DNA from: Limisphaerales bacterium
GTDB lineage: Bacteria > Verrucomicrobiota > Verrucomicrobiia > Limisphaerales > UBA1096
Length of the DNA: 64,000 bases
Direction: 5' to 3'
Assembly (NCBI GenBank): GCA_004213515.1
Contig: SHAK01000001.1
Coordinates: forward strand, 2,972 to 66,971
Shown here: positions 3,537-38,038 of the stretch, piece after piece
Layout of the letters: each line of letters opens with the position of its first letter
Numbering within the stretch: position 1 is the stretch's first letter
Notes under the pieces: generated by a model
The model's input: the letters and a program-made list of their open reading frames with translations, nothing else
The model's database searches: none
Told to the model about the DNA's origin: nothing
Made by a program: the position numbers and the translations under genes

Positions 3537-5675
3537 TTAGTCATTCATACGGGGTTCAACCCCAAGAAGATGGCGAACAAAAAAATCCATTCTCTTTCTA
3601 GCCACATACTTTGATTCTCCCACTCCATGCCCCGCACCCGGCACCATCAAAAATTCAAAATCCTTGTCTGCCTTAATTAGCGCATCTACAACCTGATAAG
3701 TAGATGACGGGTCAACATTTGTGTCTAACTCGCCAACAGTTAATAAAAGTTTACCTTTTAGCATGTGTGCATTAGTTACATTAGACTGCTCATCATAATG
3801 TGGCCCAACGGGATAATCCATCCACTGTTCATTCCACCACATTTTATCCATTCGATTGTCATGACATCCACAGTCGGCAGCTGCAGCTTTATAAAAATCA
3901 TTATGCCAAAGCAGTGCCGCCATGGCGTTTTGCCCCCCAGCTGATCCTCCATAGATACCCACTCTTGAAATATCCATGTAAGGATATTTCTTAGCTGCCT
4001 CTTTAATCCACTTCTTTCGATCTGGGAAGCCAGCATCATTGATATTTTTATAAGCAAAATGTTGAAATTCACGGCCCCGGTTTGAAGTGCCTTTACCGTC
4101 AATCTGAACTGTAATAAATCCCAATTCAGCCAGCTCCTCCCGCCACATACCATAGCGAGATCGCCATTTTTTTGGAACAAAAGAACCATGCGGACCGGCA
4201 TAAATCACTTCTACAACTGGATAGCTTTTATTAGGATCAAAATTACTGGGACGGCAAATAATACCATGAATATCGAACTTTCCATCTCGATCCTTAGCGA
4301 CGAAACGCTCTGGCGCATGAAATCCAGCGGCAAACAAATCAGCGGCATCTGATTGCTCTAACTCACAAAGAAGCGACCCATCTTTAGCACTTCTAAGTAC
4401 ATGCCGTGGCGGTAAGTCAACTCTTGACCATGTATCAATAAAAACGGTTTTATCGGGGGAAAATCGCACTGAATGCGTACCGTCTCCATCTGTCAATTTC
4501 AACAATTCAGTTCCATCAAAATTAACCTTATAGTAGTGGTGATAATACGGATCAATTCCCTCTTCTCTACCAGATGCTTGGAATGTAATTTGCCTTTTTT
4601 CATGGTTAACATCAACAACCTCTCGAACAACCCACTCACCCTTTGTAATCTGGAATTTTACTTTGCCACTAAGACCATCGTAGAGATAAAGGTGATTCCA
4701 GCCATCTCGTTCAGAACGCCAAATAATTTCTTCAATACCGTTTAAATCCTTTCTGTATCCCTTTTGAAATACATTAACAAAAGTCTTAGCTGTCTCGTCT
4801 ATCAAAGTACGTGTTTTGCCTGATGGAATTTGAATTTCAATAATACGATGAGCTCCAAAACCTCGCTCAATATGCTCAAAAATAAAACCACTTGAATCTG
4901 ATCGCCATACCGGTCTGCGAGTCGAAAATGGATCCTTTACAAGCAAGGGATCAGCCGTAAATTGGCGACTATTCCATCCTGCTAAAAAGACGTGCACGGT
5001 CTGAGTAGGCATAGGGTCTCCTGGCTTGCTATAACTTCGTTTGAAATGCTTGGGTTGAAGTTGATCGTCGGGGGCCGAATCTACGTAGTGTACCTCACGA
5101 GTTTTAACTTCTCTACGTTTCATAAGAGAAACGTATTTGGAATCCGGCGACCAAAAAAATGGTTCCTGATAAATATTCTCTTTGGTCCCATCTTTTGACA
5201 ACTGAATATCTGCACCGTCCTTTAAATCATGAACAAATATATTATTATTCTTTATGAACGCACGCCAACGACCATTTGGAGAAATAGGACCACTCTTCCC
5301 TGTATTGGATTTATTTTTGGCTATATTCTCACTTAGTTTTTTAGATTTTTTTTCTAAATACTTCTTAGTTAACTTATCTGCCCTTGATTGACGCTTTTTT
5401 AAAGCTACATCAAATTTTGACTTGTCTAAAAATGCGCGACGTTTCCCCTTGCTACCATTTACAAGTACATACTCACGCACACCACGGATCTTATTCTCAT
5501 ACCAAAAATGGTGCCCTCCGAACCAATTTGGACTCATCGTATCTTTATAGACTTTACCAGAAAAAAGCTGTCGAATCTTAACTGAACGTTCGTAATCGGC
5601 CTTCGTCCCTTGCCCAAACGAAGAAACACACGCAATCAGAACACCAACATATAATATAATTATTCGATGTATCAT
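3537..5675 (-). CDS. S9B family dipeptidyl-peptidase IV-like serine peptidase
   Basis: 712 aa with a signal peptide and a DPP-IV-type N-terminal region. The C-terminal alpha/beta hydrolase carries the nucleophile elbow VGIYGGSAGGQNA and a distal GAGHG histidine motif. Confidence 0.8.
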   Translation of the reverse strand: MIHRIIILYVGVLIACVSSFGQGTKADYERSVKIRQLFSGKVYKDTMSPNWFGGHHFWYENKIRGVREYVLVNGSKGKRRAFLDKSKFDVALKKRQSRADKLTKKYLEKKSKKLSENIAKNKSNTGKSGPISPNGRWRAFIKNNNIFVHDLKDGADIQLSKDGTKENIYQEPFFWSPDSKYVSLMKRREVKTREVHYVDSAPDDQLQPKHFKRSYSKPGDPMPTQTVHVFLAGWNSRQFTADPLLVKDPFSTRRPVWRSDSSGFIFEHIERGFGAHRIIEIQIPSGKTRTLIDETAKTFVNVFQKGYRKDLNGIEEIIWRSERDGWNHLYLYDGLSGKVKFQITKGEWVVREVVDVNHEKRQITFQASGREEGIDPYYHHYYKVNFDGTELLKLTDGDGTHSVRFSPDKTVFIDTWSRVDLPPRHVLRSAKDGSLLCELEQSDAADLFAAGFHAPERFVAKDRDGKFDIHGIICRPSNFDPNKSYPVVEVIYAGPHGSFVPKKWRSRYGMWREELAELGFITVQIDGKGTSNRGREFQHFAYKNINDAGFPDRKKWIKEAAKKYPYMDISRVGIYGGSAGGQNAMAALLWHNDFYKAAAADCGCHDNRMDKMWWNEQWMDYPVGPHYDEQSNVTNAHMLKGKLLLTVGELDTNVDPSSTYQVVDALIKADKDFEFLMVPGAGHGVGESKYVARKRMDFFVRHLLGVEPRMND

Positions 5676-5791: not shown

Positions 5792-6463
5792 ATGAAATAT
5801 CAAATTTACACCATAATAATAGCTGGTCTTGTCACAAGTTGCGGGGTGAAGAAAACCACTACAATTAAAACAGACAATCCCAATAAGAGTTCAGACTCGG
5901 CAAAATCGCTTGTTAAACAGGAAGAAAAACAACAGTCAAAAGACTTATCTATTCCAGCTTCCGATAAGAAAACCAAACCTGAAGCTGAAATTAAAATACA
6001 ACCTCAGTTCGAACCAATAACCAGTACACCTCAAGTTTCAAAAAAAATTGTGAAAACCGACGCAGAATGGAAAGCATTACTTTCGCCCGAGGAATATCAA
6101 ATTCTTCGCCAAAAAGGAACAGAACGCGCCTTCACAGGCAAGTTTGATAAACACTATAAAGAAGGAACCTACACTTGTAAGGGCTGCGGCACCCCACTAT
6201 TTGAGTCTACCACCAAGTATGATTCTGGTTGCGGTTGGCCTGCTTTTTTTAAGGCAAAAGAAAATACAATTGATGAAACAGTAGATCGTAGTTACGGCAT
6301 GATTAGAACTGAAATAACATGCAAAAAATGCGACGGTCATTTAGGTCATATCTTCAATGACGGCCCAAATCCAACAGGGGTAAGATATTGTGTTAACTCT
6401 GCATCAATGGGATTTATCCCTGCAGAAAAAGACAAACAATCCAATCCGAAACAAAAAAAATAA
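5792..6463 (+). CDS. msrB: Peptide-methionine (R)-S-oxide reductase MsrB, exported lipoprotein form
   Basis: The C-terminal ~130 aa is a canonical MsrB: two CxxC pairs (CKGCGTPLF, CKKCDGHLGHIF), GCGWPAF and RYCVNS. The track ORF starts at TTG 5741. I prefer ATG 5792, which gives a lipoprotein signal (MKYQIYTIIIAGLVTSCG). Confidence 0.85.
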   Translation: MKYQIYTIIIAGLVTSCGVKKTTTIKTDNPNKSSDSAKSLVKQEEKQQSKDLSIPASDKKTKPEAEIKIQPQFEPITSTPQVSKKIVKTDAEWKALLSPEEYQILRQKGTERAFTGKFDKHYKEGTYTCKGCGTPLFESTTKYDSGCGWPAFFKAKENTIDETVDRSYGMIRTEITCKKCDGHLGHIFNDGPNPTGVRYCVNSASMGFIPAEKDKQSNPKQKK

Positions 6464-35012: not shown

Positions 35013-35170
35013 TGTGTGGTCTTCTTTTGACCTAATAGAAAATATACTTACCACGAATTGATTTGTGCAAATGAAATCAATATTGTCATCATATTATTAC
35101 GTTTTTGTGCTCATGTTGAAACAATTGAAACGTTCTCATACAGTGGCACTACTTTAAAAATCGCGGAAGC

Positions 35171-35245
35171 ATGGCTAAAATTGTTTATGGCATTTCCGGC
35201 AGTGGCTCGGGGCACAATAGCGCAGCTGTCATTTTTTATTCATAA
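35171..35245 (+). pseudogene. 5' relic of a second MJ1255-type glycosyltransferase gene
   Basis: ATGGCTAAAATTGTTTATGGCATTTCCGGCAGTGGCTCGGGGCAC encodes MAKIVYGISGSGSGH. This is identical in protein to the first 15 residues of the 32562-33650 gene. The DNA differs at 6 of 45 positions, all third-codon. The frame ends after 24 codons. Confidence 0.7.
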
Positions 35246-35364
35246 ATTTATAAAATATGATTTTATATTTGCCCTAACCTGTTTTTTAGCGCCGAATGAT
35301 ATTCCCCTACTCTACAACAAAACCATGAGTTTTTAGGTCTGTCTATTACCTAGGAAATTCTAAA

Positions 35365-35386: not shown

Positions 35387-35455
35387 TGGTTTTCTGATTA
35401 ACCCTATAGTAATTGGCTAATCTGCTCTTTGACGTGACTACGCCTGACTTGGAGA

Positions 35456-35644
35456 TTACTGATTAAAGAGTTCCCCGAATTGTTCAACTATTTGTTTGGA
35501 AACTTCAAGTTGAGCTTTATGTTTTGTGTCCATCTCATGTTCTGGTGAACAAATAATATTAACGACTTCAATGTGATTTTTTTTGAAGGCTAAGTCTTGA
35601 AACGAATCTCCAAACTTTATCGGAATGGTATTTTTTCTATTCAT
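35456..35644 (-). CDS. Hypothetical 62-aa protein (orphan)
   Basis: ATG-initiated ORF: MNRKNTIPIKFGDSFQDLAFKKNHIEVVNIICSPEHEMDTKHKAQLEVSKQIVEQFGELFNQ. I recognise no motif. It lies between the repeat units on the same strand as them. Confidence 0.3.
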   Translation of the reverse strand: MNRKNTIPIKFGDSFQDLAFKKNHIEVVNIICSPEHEMDTKHKAQLEVSKQIVEQFGELFNQ

Positions 35645-35670
35645 AATATTTGAAGCAAACGAGAAAAAAT

Positions 35671-35700
35671 TACATAATTTTTGTTACATTAAATGGTCAA
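35671..35700 (-). promoter_or_regulatory. Candidate sigma70-type promoter for the 62-aa ORF
   Basis: On the - strand, TTGACC-N18-TATGTA ends about 27 nt upstream of the ATG. It shares TGTAACAAA with the conserved block of the tandem units. Confidence 0.3.
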
Positions 35701-35842
35701 TCAGGCAAAAAATTGAAAAAAACTTTGTGTAGCGATAATATTTTTCTAAATGCGAATACTCAGTTTTACAGTAAAAATCTCTTATCTCTCACTCCGGTTA
35801 TATTATCTGTTAAATCTTTTACTGTACAAATTAGTAAACAAT

Positions 35843-35877
35843 AAAAAATCCCTCGCCAACATATAAGTCAACGAGGG
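35843..35877 (-). terminator. Intrinsic terminator of unit A (- strand)
   Basis: The - strand RNA CCCUCGUUGAC-UUAU-GUUGGCGAGGG forms an 11-bp stem with 3 G-U pairs, then AUUUUUU. On the + strand the G-U pairs become A-C mismatches and there is no U-tail. Confidence 0.75.
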
Positions 35878-35987
35878 ACAAAGCCAGCTACCAACTGGCG
35901 ACCTAATACAAGCTAGCTACCTACATCTAACTTCAGCAGCCGGTAAAACCTTCTCATGAGTTTGTTACAGTATCATTTCAATCAAGT

Positions 35988-36021
35988 AAAAAAAGCCCCC
36001 GCCAACCTAAGTCAACGAGGG
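35988..36021 (-). terminator. Intrinsic terminator of unit B (- strand)
   Basis: The - strand RNA CCCUCGUUGAC-UUAG-GUUGGCGGGGG forms an 11-bp stem with 4 G-U pairs, then CUUUUUUU. Confidence 0.75.
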
Positions 36022-36162
36022 ACATATAACCTACCAAGTTCTCTTTGTGATCAAGCTGCTAAGAACAGCTAGCAAAACTTTCTCATGAGTTTGTTACAGT
36101 ATCATTTCAATCAAGTAAAAAAAGCCCCATAATTACTCGCTACCATAGCAGTGGCAGCACTT

Positions 36163-36184
36163 AAAAAAGAGGGCTGAAGCCGTC
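36163..36184 (-). terminator. Weaker terminator-like hairpin upstream of the array (- strand)
   Basis: On the - strand, GACGGC-UUCA-GCCCUC (6 bp, one C-C mismatch) is followed by UUUUUU. Confidence 0.4.
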
Positions 36185-36226
36185 TTGCAATAATTGCTAA
36201 TAACATTAACTTGAGCGCGAGGAGCG

Positions 36227-36317
36227 ATGTAGTAGTCGCTTCCTTAACTAGGCCTTCGTCGTCATTTTTTTTCTCAGTGCCACATCACTGAGTTTTGGCG
36301 GCGGAGGTCTTTTCATT
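36227..36317 (+). repeat. Structured element copy 2: conserved 5' box, nested hairpin and U-tract
   Basis: ATGTAGTAGTCGC...TAGGCCTTCGTCGTC...GGCGGCGGAGGTCTTTTCATT. The outer 13-bp stem 36251-63/36297-309 has 4 G-U pairs. The inner perfect 7-bp hairpin is CTCAGTG-CCACAT-CACTGAG. A U-rich tail follows. Confidence 0.5.
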
Positions 36318-36406
36318 AGAGTCAGAGTAATTTTTCAAGAGCTTTAGTTACCCTGCAGTTTAAAAAAATTATGAGGCTATAAAAATAACAGTTGAACTGT
36401 AACTGT

Positions 36407-36426
36407 GTGACCCACGTTTGGGTCAC
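36407..36426. other. Perfect 8-bp hairpin 63 nt downstream of the tRNA-Gly 3' end
   Basis: GTGACCCA-CGTT-TGGGTCAC. No U-tract lies directly adjacent on either strand. It may be a processing or termination signal for the tRNA transcript. Confidence 0.3.
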
Positions 36427-36488
36427 AAATTTCTAACTAGATAAAATTAGAGTAAGGTCGTTTTTGACCAATACATTGAGGGGGAAAT

Positions 36489-36564
36489 TGGAGCGGGTGA
36501 AGAGATTCGAACTCTCGACAGTCACCTTGGCAAGGTGGCGCTCTACCAGCTGAGCTACACCCGC
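36489..36564 (-). tRNA. tRNA-Gly (anticodon GCC), CCA encoded
   Basis: The reverse complement GCGGGTGTAGCTCAGCTGGTAGAGCGCCACCTTGCCAAGGTGACTGTCGAGAGTTCGAATCTCTTCACCCGCTCCA folds as a cloverleaf. It has a 7-bp acceptor, GCTC/GAGC D-stem, anticodon loop TTGCCAA, T-loop TTCGAAT and discriminator U. Confidence 0.95.
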
Positions 36565-36901: not shown

Positions 36902-38038
36902 ATGAAAATAATGATGATTACTAGAGGTATCTTTTTAGCAGGGCTAATTCTGGGATTATTAGCAATACCTAGTCTGATCGCTCAGGACAAAAAAGAAGAA
37001 AAAAAAGAGGAAAAGAAAGAAGAGAAACCGAAGCTAATTTCGGTTTTTAAAGACAAGGCACTAGAGGAAGGCGTTCGCAAATTTGTATTCGCTAAACGCT
37101 ACAACAAAGAACCCTTGGTAGAAGCAGATCTGATTCATCTTTCTACTATCAAAGTTACTAATGCGGGAATCAAGGATTTGAGTGGTCTAGAAAAATGCCG
37201 TGCTCTAGCATCTCTAGATCTTGCCGGTAATGACATTACCGACTTTAGCGCAATCAAGGACCTCAAGCGCATACAATATTTAAATCTAGCAAAGAATAAG
37301 ATTGAAAATATTGAACCGATATCCGGATTAACAGCTCTGCAGTATATCGAACTCTCCAATAATCGAGTAAAAAATTTAAGCCCACTCGAAAAGCTTAGTA
37401 ACATGCGCTCACTTTATCTTTCAAATAATCGTATAAGCGATTTTTCACCAGCTCTTAAACTTAGTAAGCTTTGGTCGCTATACCTAGACCATAATCAGAT
37501 CACAAAACTTGATGGTGTCGCCTCACTCAAGAGCCTAACAACTCTTTCTGCAGGCAATAACGAACTCACCGATCTAAGCCCTCTTAATGGTCTAACTCGA
37601 CTACATTTCTTGTTTCTTGAGAACAATAAAATTGCCAATTTAGATGCCCTCGTTTCTATGGCTAGTACTGACTACAAGGGACCGAAAAATTTTGCTCCTT
37701 TCCTTCGCCTCTACATGAAGGGAAACCCAATAGATGGCGCAACAGATAGTAGATTAAAATTTGCACGATTAATGAAATTTGGTGTTCGTGTAGAAACTCC
37801 GCGCCAACCCGAATTAGTTACCTTTAATAGCACTGGGTGGTCCGGTGAGTTAAACGGCGAACAATTATCTGCTTTTCATAAAGATATTCTTCAGCGCTTC
37901 GATCTAGTCAAAGACGCCAAGATTCAGTTGCAACTCAATGTCACACCGGAAGATGGTATCACAAAACAAGAAGTTGATGAGTTAAAGGCGGCACTAAAGA
38001 AACTTGGCTTAAACGACAAAGTCGATCTTAGCCTATAA
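36902..38038 (+). CDS. Secreted leucine-rich repeat (internalin-like LRR) protein
   Basis: Signal peptide, then a KKEEKKEEKKEEK linker. About nine 22-residue LRRs follow (LxxLxLxxNxIxDxSxL, e.g. LASLDLAGNDITDFSAIKDLKRIQYLNLAKNKIENIEPI). Confidence 0.8.
   Translation: MKIMMITRGIFLAGLILGLLAIPSLIAQDKKEEKKEEKKEEKPKLISVFKDKALEEGVRKFVFAKRYNKEPLVEADLIHLSTIKVTNAGIKDLSGLEKCRALASLDLAGNDITDFSAIKDLKRIQYLNLAKNKIENIEPISGLTALQYIELSNNRVKNLSPLEKLSNMRSLYLSNNRISDFSPALKLSKLWSLYLDHNQITKLDGVASLKSLTTLSAGNNELTDLSPLNGLTRLHFLFLENNKIANLDALVSMASTDYKGPKNFAPFLRLYMKGNPIDGATDSRLKFARLMKFGVRVETPRQPELVTFNSTGWSGELNGEQLSAFHKDILQRFDLVKDAKIQLQLNVTPEDGITKQEVDELKAALKKLGLNDKVDLSL

Follow-up and report, generated by a model that had tools for sequence, protein, structure and literature searches.

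The adjacent paralogous small RNA (sRNA) pairs OmrA/OmrB of Escherichia coli and PrrF1/PrrF2 of Pseudomonas have conserved ends and a divergent middle. In the NsiR1 array of Nostoc, 12 copies are arranged in tandem, each with its own promoter; the central copies are identical, and the peripheral copies are diverged (PMC9045159). A survey lists 8 sRNA families for the whole Planctomycetes-Verrucomicrobia-Chlamydiae (PVC) group and 345 for Proteobacteria (PMC9029176). Here we describe a tandem array in a 64,000-nucleotide stretch of a Limisphaerales bacterium of the phylum Verrucomicrobiota (contig SHAK01000001.1, positions 2,972 to 66,971); this whole stretch is called the window. The array is bounded by tRNA-Gly(GCC) (36489-36564, - strand) and by an open reading frame (ORF) of 62 amino acids (aa) (35456-35644, - strand). 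Two of its units, unit A (~97 nt) and unit B (~114 nt), are candidate sibling sRNA genes, which would have a promoter type in common with the small ORF and would most likely act in trans. We assign a probability of about one half to this reading.

According to this reading, three co-oriented transcription units lie on the - strand downstream of tRNA-Gly, and one promoter/5' leader module is present in all of them. Units A and B have short non-coding bodies and strong intrinsic terminators, and would give discrete RNAs of ~97 and ~114 nt; the third unit carries the 62-aa ORF. Since the promoter type is common, the sibling sRNAs A and B would be switched on and expressed together with the small ORF, and they would most likely act in trans through base-pairing. 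The array would have originated by unequal recombination between the blocks described below. Thus, the unit number varies among strains, and the segment that carries the array is dispensable and exchanged between lineages. The features are as follows, in the order of transcription.

36489-36564, - strand: tRNA-Gly(GCC), detected by ARAGORN and by the Rfam tRNA model (65.5 bits); the upstream anchor, co-oriented with the units.
36066-36128, - strand: block copy 1, the putative promoter/leader module of unit A, from the repeat search, profile search and motif scan; TTGAAA (-35-like) at 36110-36105, TGTAACAA at 36098-36091 and CATGAG at 36087-36082.
35988-36086, - strand: unit A, from the terminator scan and fold; a predicted transcript of ~97 nt from about 36084 (putative start) to 35988.
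35937-35999, - strand: block copy 2, the putative promoter/leader module of unit B, from the repeat and profile searches; TTGAAA at 35981-35976.
35842-35957, - strand: unit B, from the terminator scan, fold and homologues; a predicted transcript of ~114 nt from about 35955 (putative start) to 35842.
35647-35713, - strand: block copy 3, diverged (~76%), which covers the 62-aa ORF's upstream sequence and 5' leader, from the repeat search, profile and gap-free alignment.
35456-35644, - strand: the 62-aa ORF, carried as cargo by the third unit; between lineages it shows an unusual degree of nucleotide conservation.

The pairs OmrA/OmrB and PrrF1/PrrF2 resemble units A and B in that two tandem, co-oriented genes have near-identical 5' parts and terminators and divergent centres. 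They differ in that no homology is present, the conservation here covers the promoter and ~30 nt of the 5' end, and the bodies are not detectably related. The closest analogue is the NsiR1 array of Nostoc/Anabaena (RF02399). As in arrays of that kind, the repeats are placed head to tail on one strand and each has a terminator; a promoter and a short sRNA in each repeat are predicted here. As in NsiR1, some copies are identical and others are diverged, and the array is located just upstream of a protein gene, which is co-regulated in NsiR1 (PMC9045159). However, the two arrays have no homology of sequence or structure (16.3 bits for the NsiR1 model against a gathering threshold of 39). NsiR1 has 12 units and an RNA of ~60 nt, whereas two ORF-less units with predicted RNAs of ~100 nt are present here, in units of 129-144 bp. 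Moreover, the promoter module here is common to a sense small ORF, the array is optional, and the host belongs to another phylum. By this analogy the kind of array is not new, but the units would form a new family, and hardly any sRNAs are known from this phylum (PMC9029176).

The original prediction, made from the sequence of the window, had noticed a 49-nt block repeated at 100% identity (35951-35999 and 36080-36128) with a period of 129 bp. This is confirmed, and zero matches were obtained in shuffled windows. The full repeat is 63 nt long and 94% identical (35937-35999 and 36066-36128). On the - strand, each block begins with GGGGC and seven T, 12 nt that correspond to the 3' arm of a terminator and its U-tail. 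In block copy 2, this terminator is the one of unit A. A profile search of the 64-kb window detected exactly three copies, all on the - strand; the third (35713-35647; nhmmer 45.2 bits, E = 4e-13) is directly upstream of the 62-aa ORF. An older copy at 35810-35849 and a partial copy at 35319-35335, which had been suspected, gave no profile match even at E = 100 in a 1.3-kb target.

The protein clusters represented in the window have members from marine metagenome-assembled genomes that are named Verrucomicrobiota bacterium. For comparison, public assemblies were searched for the 62-aa protein and for proteins closely related to it, which gave about 40 loci, mostly from Tara Oceans metagenomes. 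All loci (designated L001 and so on) were oriented so that the + strand of the locus corresponds to the - strand of the window. Six sequences, comprising unit blocks and ORF upstream regions of several lineages, were aligned with no internal gaps over ~70 nt. The elements are arranged in the order T-run, -35-like TTGAAA, TG(T/C)(A/G)ACAA, CATGAG(A), and a leader ending in GGCTGCTGAAGTT. The -35-like position reads TTGACC, TTGATC or TTGCAA in other block copies. The 62-aa ORF of L035 and L036 (81-87% protein identity) has a close copy of the block (ACCTCATTGCAATATAGATGCAACAAACTCATGAGACAGTCTTCCCGGCTGCTGAAGTTTTTATGG) that leads straight into its start codon. Ahead of this block and ORF is an ORF-less unit whose body is of the B type and which ends in a terminator, and in L036 a further terminator and block follow the ORF. 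The homology to the ORF upstream region and leader, together with the position of the block directly before the ORF in L035 and L036, makes the block a putative promoter/5' leader module, and we consider this a sound reading. The same arrangement and the alignment of block and leader indicate that the family is a series of 'block - cargo - terminator' units, in which the cargo is the ORF or a short non-coding body. No other evidence supports the promoter block of the original prediction as strongly.

The motif TTG-N9-TGYRAYAA occurs 3 times in 64 kb, all at this locus, against 0.57 expected. The block also resembles a sigma-32 promoter (CTTGAAA...CCCCAT, against what we take to be the E. coli consensus, ATTGAAA...(G/A)C(C/T)CAT). 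The ORF's own copy does not match, and this resemblance is a lead only.

Two intrinsic terminators on the - strand had been proposed, and both were detected by the terminator scan. One is located at 36021-35996 (11 pairs, loop UUAG, tail CUUUUUUU), and the other at 35879-35848 (13 pairs, 6-nt loop, tail UUUUUU). A longer imperfect hairpin had been noted at the block 36080-36128, and it is present with a fold of -23.1 kcal/mol. The strand specificity expected from the G-U pairs also holds. The folds are -31 kcal/mol (- strand) and -16.3 kcal/mol (+ strand) for unit A, and -42 and -25.4 kcal/mol for unit B.

Ten distinct hairpins from the window, L001, L011, L035 and L036 (four lineages) were compared. 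In the 11-bp stem, 89% of the cells are paired, and three pairs are changed on both sides (G-C to A-U twice, and C-G to U-A). When the 3' partners were shifted by 1-3 columns as a control, 35-61% were paired and zero compensatory changes were found. According to the compensatory changes in ten copies, the terminators are real and are maintained under selection as RNA hairpins. The hairpins themselves are no different from ordinary intrinsic (Rho-independent) terminators. Their G+C-rich stems are 11-13 bp long, the loops measure 4-6 nt and the tails 6-7 U, and they show strand specificity by G-U pairs and covariation. The unusual feature here is the fusion of each hairpin, U-tail included, to the promoter block of the next unit, together with which it is duplicated.

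Three to four terminators are arranged in series within 350 bp on one strand. Serial terminators make sense only with promoters between them, and thus internal promoters would be needed. Alternatively, the stacked terminators could be a cis-acting insulator that shields the ORF from read-through of tRNA-Gly, the blocks could be decoys that titrate a regulator, and the short RNAs would be by-products. The serial terminators between a highly expressed tRNA gene and the ORF agree with such a role, and the three occurrences of TTG-N9-TGYRAYAA, found only at this locus, suit the site of a specific regulator. However, the state without the array is the commonest among the loci obtained, and in it the ORF is located 98 bp past the tRNA with no terminator between the two. 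Insulation is thus not needed, and we regard this explanation as unlikely.

Turning to the bodies of the candidate sRNA genes, the original prediction had called them unrelated, and this was supported by the alignments. Beyond the 63-nt block, the local alignment score of units A and B was reached by 195 of 2000 shuffles. The idea that unit A is a deleted version of unit B was rejected, as the body similarity is not significant. The first ~30 nt of the two predicted RNAs are identical, their 5' stem-loops begin at a common GCUG, and their terminator hairpins are near-identical. In unit A, the 5' end in common with unit B is followed by the stem-loop AGCUG-UUCUUAG-CAGCU, the variable body, the terminator 36021-35996 and the U-tail 35994-35988. 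Unit B comprises stem-loop 1 (SL1, GGCUGCU/AGGUAGCU), stem-loop 2 (SL2, GCCAG-UUGGUAG-CUGGC), the terminator 35879-35848 and the U-tail 35847-35842. The fold z-score of unit B is -3.5 (35843-35950).

Homologues of unit B are present in L011, L035 and L036. RNAalifold analysis of five unit B-type sequences gave SL1, SL2 and the terminator. In SL1, three pairs are altered on one side, and in SL2 (GCCAG/CUGGC) one pair is altered on both sides. Among the B-type units of four lineages, the stem columns are 87.5% identical and gap-free, whereas the unpaired columns show 53% identity and numerous gaps; the comparison is in part circular, since this very alignment had yielded the structure. L035, L036 and the upstream unit of L011 have an additional hairpin ahead of the terminator. 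It shows two compensatory pairs, GGCCGGAA/UUCCGGCC in L035 against GGCUAGAA/UUCUAGCC in L011.

The sequence (G/C)TTGGTAG is common to both bodies. It is located in the SL2 loop of unit B (35885-35901) and at 36033-36041 in unit A. The SL2 loop CAGTTGGTAG is identical to what we take to be a common tRNA D-arm sequence, and the Rfam tRNA model gave no match there. Target prediction by RNAduplex with the 44 translation-initiation regions of the window yielded duplexes that were long and unrealistic, without a neighbour that stood out, and it was not used.

The units could instead encode micro-peptides that start at the ATG within the block (CTCATGAG). The ATG is present in every A/B-type block copy, and the initial residues are alike between copies (MR-K/R/Q-F/S...). 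However, the peptides would be 5, 11, 14, 10 or 32 aa long in different copies, with an immediate stop in the ORF's own leader, so that a coding function of the units is unlikely. The ATG is not preceded by a Shine-Dalgarno-like sequence, the similarity among the copies is no greater than the nucleotide conservation itself, and the partial units of L011 and L012 (L011dn and L012dn) have no ATG segment. We thus consider micro-peptides most improbable. A type I toxin-antitoxin or small-protein gene in the units was also rejected, as the small reading frame within them is conserved among the copies neither in length nor in sequence.

The original prediction of tandem sRNA genes is supported in part, by the homology of the promoter block, the covarying terminators and the - strand specificity, and the units are indeed co-oriented with tRNA-Gly and the 62-aa ORF, all on the - strand. 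Transcription of the units and promoter activity of the blocks are putative; the -35-like TTGAAA of the block is a good one, but no canonical -10 element is present. Two points are added here. The ORF belongs to the same repeat family, and the array is part of an optional 762-bp segment that was recently exchanged.

Several results weigh against units A and B as sRNA genes. A sigma-70 scan called no promoter within the blocks. At 17 bp past TTGAAA the sequence reads CATGAG, and the conserved TGTAACAA is a poor -10 element. In Akkermansia, which belongs to the same phylum, ordinary -35/TATAAT signals are observed at mapped start sites (PMC4782308). The fold z-scores of unit A (-1.4 to -1.6) are unremarkable, and its body has been found in this lineage alone. 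About four independent lineages are available, and the covariation outside the terminator is thin. SL2 is missing in the L001 paralogue. Finally, the array is absent from many otherwise near-identical strains, and is thus dispensable.

The last point is taken from the comparison of strains, which defines the segment; two further features upstream of unit A are listed with it.

35723-36484, - strand: the accessory 762-bp segment that carries the array, from the comparison of empty and occupied loci.
36163-36185, - strand: a terminator-like hairpin ahead of unit A, formed by AGACGGCUUCAGCCCUC with UUUUUU after it, from the sequence and fold; it has a C-C mismatch and was missed by the terminator scan.
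36129-36168, - strand: a patchwork piece ahead of unit A, with a hairpin GCUGCCA/UGGUAGC by fold; its end is GGGGC and a T-run without the 5' arm.

In the empty state, the gap between the tRNA and the ORF is 98 bp. This state was found in 15 loci (L009, L010, L015-L022, L024, L033, L034, L039 and L040). There, 17 bp (TTCTTACTTTTCCCCTG) replace the 762-bp segment 35723-36484. The two-unit state was found in the window and at least eight loci, and the one-unit state in L004, which lacks exactly one 129-bp period. The flanks of the empty L015 and of the occupied L025, L028 and L023 are 98-99.5% identical on both sides. These near-identical flanks indicate a presence/absence polymorphism within the population. 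Target duplication or inverted ends were not seen at the insert junctions. The predicted hairpin 36163-36185 is positioned so that it would block read-through from the tRNA. The patchwork piece is a partial copy of 35137-35165, and it gave a BLAST match to L001 4619-4718 (87%).

These results bear on the main rival explanation. In this explanation, the units are debris of duplication, left behind when unequal recombination copied the ORF's promoter/leader and a terminator; they may be transcribed or silent, and would be without a function of their own. The block is a paralogue of the ORF leader, and the region is a patchwork of repeated fragments (36129-36168 with its copy of 35137-35165, and the 66-bp repeats of L001 described below). 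Near-identical strains have 0, 1 or 2 units, so that the array is dispensable, the A and B bodies are unrelated, the copy in L001 has a different 3' body, and the canonical -10 box is missing. On the other hand, the 49-nt block is 100% identical and yet the bodies are unalignable, a contrast that uniform neutral decay would not yield. The terminator stem is kept by compensatory changes across lineages, and the stems of the B-type body are kept in relatives whose linkers are full of indels. We consider debris possible, though somewhat unlikely. If the units are debris, the locus would be a tidy case of a recombination hotspot downstream of a tRNA gene, and of little wider interest.

The segment was compared between the window and the L028/L009 lineage. 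The identity is ~83% in the leucine-rich repeat (LRR), YebC and pyrroloquinoline quinone (PQQ) genes, and 40-50% in the spacer upstream of the tRNA. It is 94-100% from the tRNA across the array and ORF to 35403, and then drops. Since the non-coding spacers inside the segment are equally identical, the high identity points to recent exchange, not constraint, and the segment has, on this sequence evidence, been exchanged recently between lineages. A second site was found in the same metagenome-assembled genome (L001, GCA_045567475.1, contig 6), where one unit and the ORF are present with 97% identity, and a 3' fragment of tRNA-Gly is located ~560 bp upstream of the unit (L001 3985-4012).

At the L001 site, the stretch with the unit, the ORF and a gene for an ankyrin lipoprotein lies between direct repeats of 66 bp (86%; 4574-4638 and 6053-6118). 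The repeat sequence is also located upstream of the metallophosphoesterase gene of the window (35137-35203), with a partial copy before unit A (36144-36168). The sharing of repeats between the two sites points to repeated recombination. In L003, L005, L026 and L038, the upstream flank of one site or lineage is joined to the downstream flank of another via the segment of tRNA, array and ORF. Such joins may reflect genuine recombination, or chimeric metagenome assembly across a repeat of ~1.2 kb whose copies are near-identical.

A mobile cassette was also considered, in which the junction of terminator and block is a recombination site (an att site, an attC-like site or the end of a miniature inverted-repeat transposable element, MITE), and the units are cassettes. 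The segment adjoins a tRNA gene and is present or absent within the population, it is 94-100% identical between lineages that are otherwise ~83% identical, the second site bears the tRNA-Gly 3' fragment, and the cargo in the relatives alternates between the ORF and non-coding bodies. Against these points, Pfam scans of the neighbouring ORFs within ~4 kb detected no integrase, transposase or IntI-like neighbour. Neither the block nor the insert ends resemble the 3' end of the tRNA, which excludes the duplicated att site that the original prediction had named as a competing explanation. The other competing explanation, a dispersed MITE or insertion sequence (IS), fares no better. The three copies of the block in 64 kb are all at this locus, a scan of the JGI metagenomes found the block on only two contigs, both already known, and neither terminal inverted repeats nor target-site duplications are present at the insert junctions; a MITE/IS end was thus rejected. 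Two pattern scans of the GTDB species representatives with the block gave 0 matches, IMG/VR gave 0 matches for the block and 0 for the ORF core, and BLAST against plasmid and phage collections gave no match. By inspection, the hairpin has no R''/R' core sites (RYYYAAC / GTTRRRY), and an integron attC site or gene cassette was rejected. A mobile cassette is very unlikely.

Two further element classes were set aside. The features of a tRNA-targeting integrative island were not found, with the caveat of the tRNA-Gly 3' fragment in L001. A clustered regularly interspaced short palindromic repeat (CRISPR) array was rejected, as only two 63-nt repeats are present and no CRISPR-DR match was found inside the array.

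A broader view combines the candidate sRNA genes with the exchange. In it, the 762-bp segment would be an 'sRNA islet' that is self-contained and needs no recombinase. This non-coding cassette would be exchanged horizontally, would have its own promoters and terminators, and would be located between tRNA-Gly and a small ORF that is ultra-conserved at the nucleotide level. The terminator-promoter junctions would be points of homology at which cargo, non-coding bodies or the ORF, is swapped between strains and between the two genomic sites. This view is speculative, and we hold it to be rather improbable. If it is true, regulatory RNAs would be accessory, exchangeable genes in free-living marine Verrucomicrobiota.

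As for known RNA families, the original prediction had recognised none, and Rfam 15 at gathering thresholds likewise returned tRNAs alone. A permissive Rfam scan gave NsiR1 (RF02399) at the score mentioned above and anti-hemB (RF02837) at 16.5 against a gathering threshold of 49.5, both on the terminator only. To our knowledge, uncultured marine Verrucomicrobiota have yielded no known regulatory RNAs. If units A and B are transcribed as sRNA genes, they would be the first sibling-sRNA family for this group. In that case, the promoter/leader in common with a small protein gene, the difference in copy number among co-occurring strains, and the recent exchange between lineages would be of note, and the gain, loss and promoter co-option of sRNAs would be directly observable in the Tara Oceans data.

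The 62-aa ORF shows unusual features of its own. The ORF segment (window 35403-35720) has 96-100% nucleotide identity between lineages whose flanking genes are ~83% identical, and a core of ~160 nt is almost invariant among 8 variants. The substitutions show no bias to the third codon position, and the non-synonymous codons exceed the synonymous codons 2-3:1. With fold z-scores of -0.6 (- strand) and 0.0 (+ strand), the ORF region was rejected as a structured RNA. The 62-aa protein gave no Pfam or NCBIfam match. A search of the PDB gave a weak resemblance to a single ankyrin repeat (E = 0.012), and no similarity was found to the neighbouring ankyrin lipoprotein of L001. The AlphaFold2 model has a predicted local distance difference test (pLDDT) score of 53 and is too poor for a fold search. 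Either the ORF is a small gene that has spread recently, or it is no conventional protein gene.

Some minor observations were made in the neighbourhood. Right after tRNA-Gly and within the accessory segment, four hairpins in series are present (window 36380-36490, - strand), with a minimum free energy of -28.9 kcal/mol and z = -4.6 (0/200 shuffles). The last of them is followed by UUAUUUUUA, and may be the weak terminator of the tRNA itself. Genes of eukaryote-like repeat proteins surround both sites: an LRR protein adjoins the tRNA (window 36902-38038, + strand), and an ankyrin lipoprotein and an acyltransferase with ankyrin repeats are encoded in L001 (5473-5973 and 6249-7952). In the distant relative L011/L012 (L011 753-1892 and L012 447-1497; JGI 3300012953), a second, unrelated repeat family of 'terminator hairpin + conserved block' (GGTGCTTTGTTTTTGGGAGGCTGTTTGCGA) is present; its 3-4 copies are all on the same strand and surround the 62-aa ORF of this relative. 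Small units bounded by terminators may generally form arrays in this neighbourhood.

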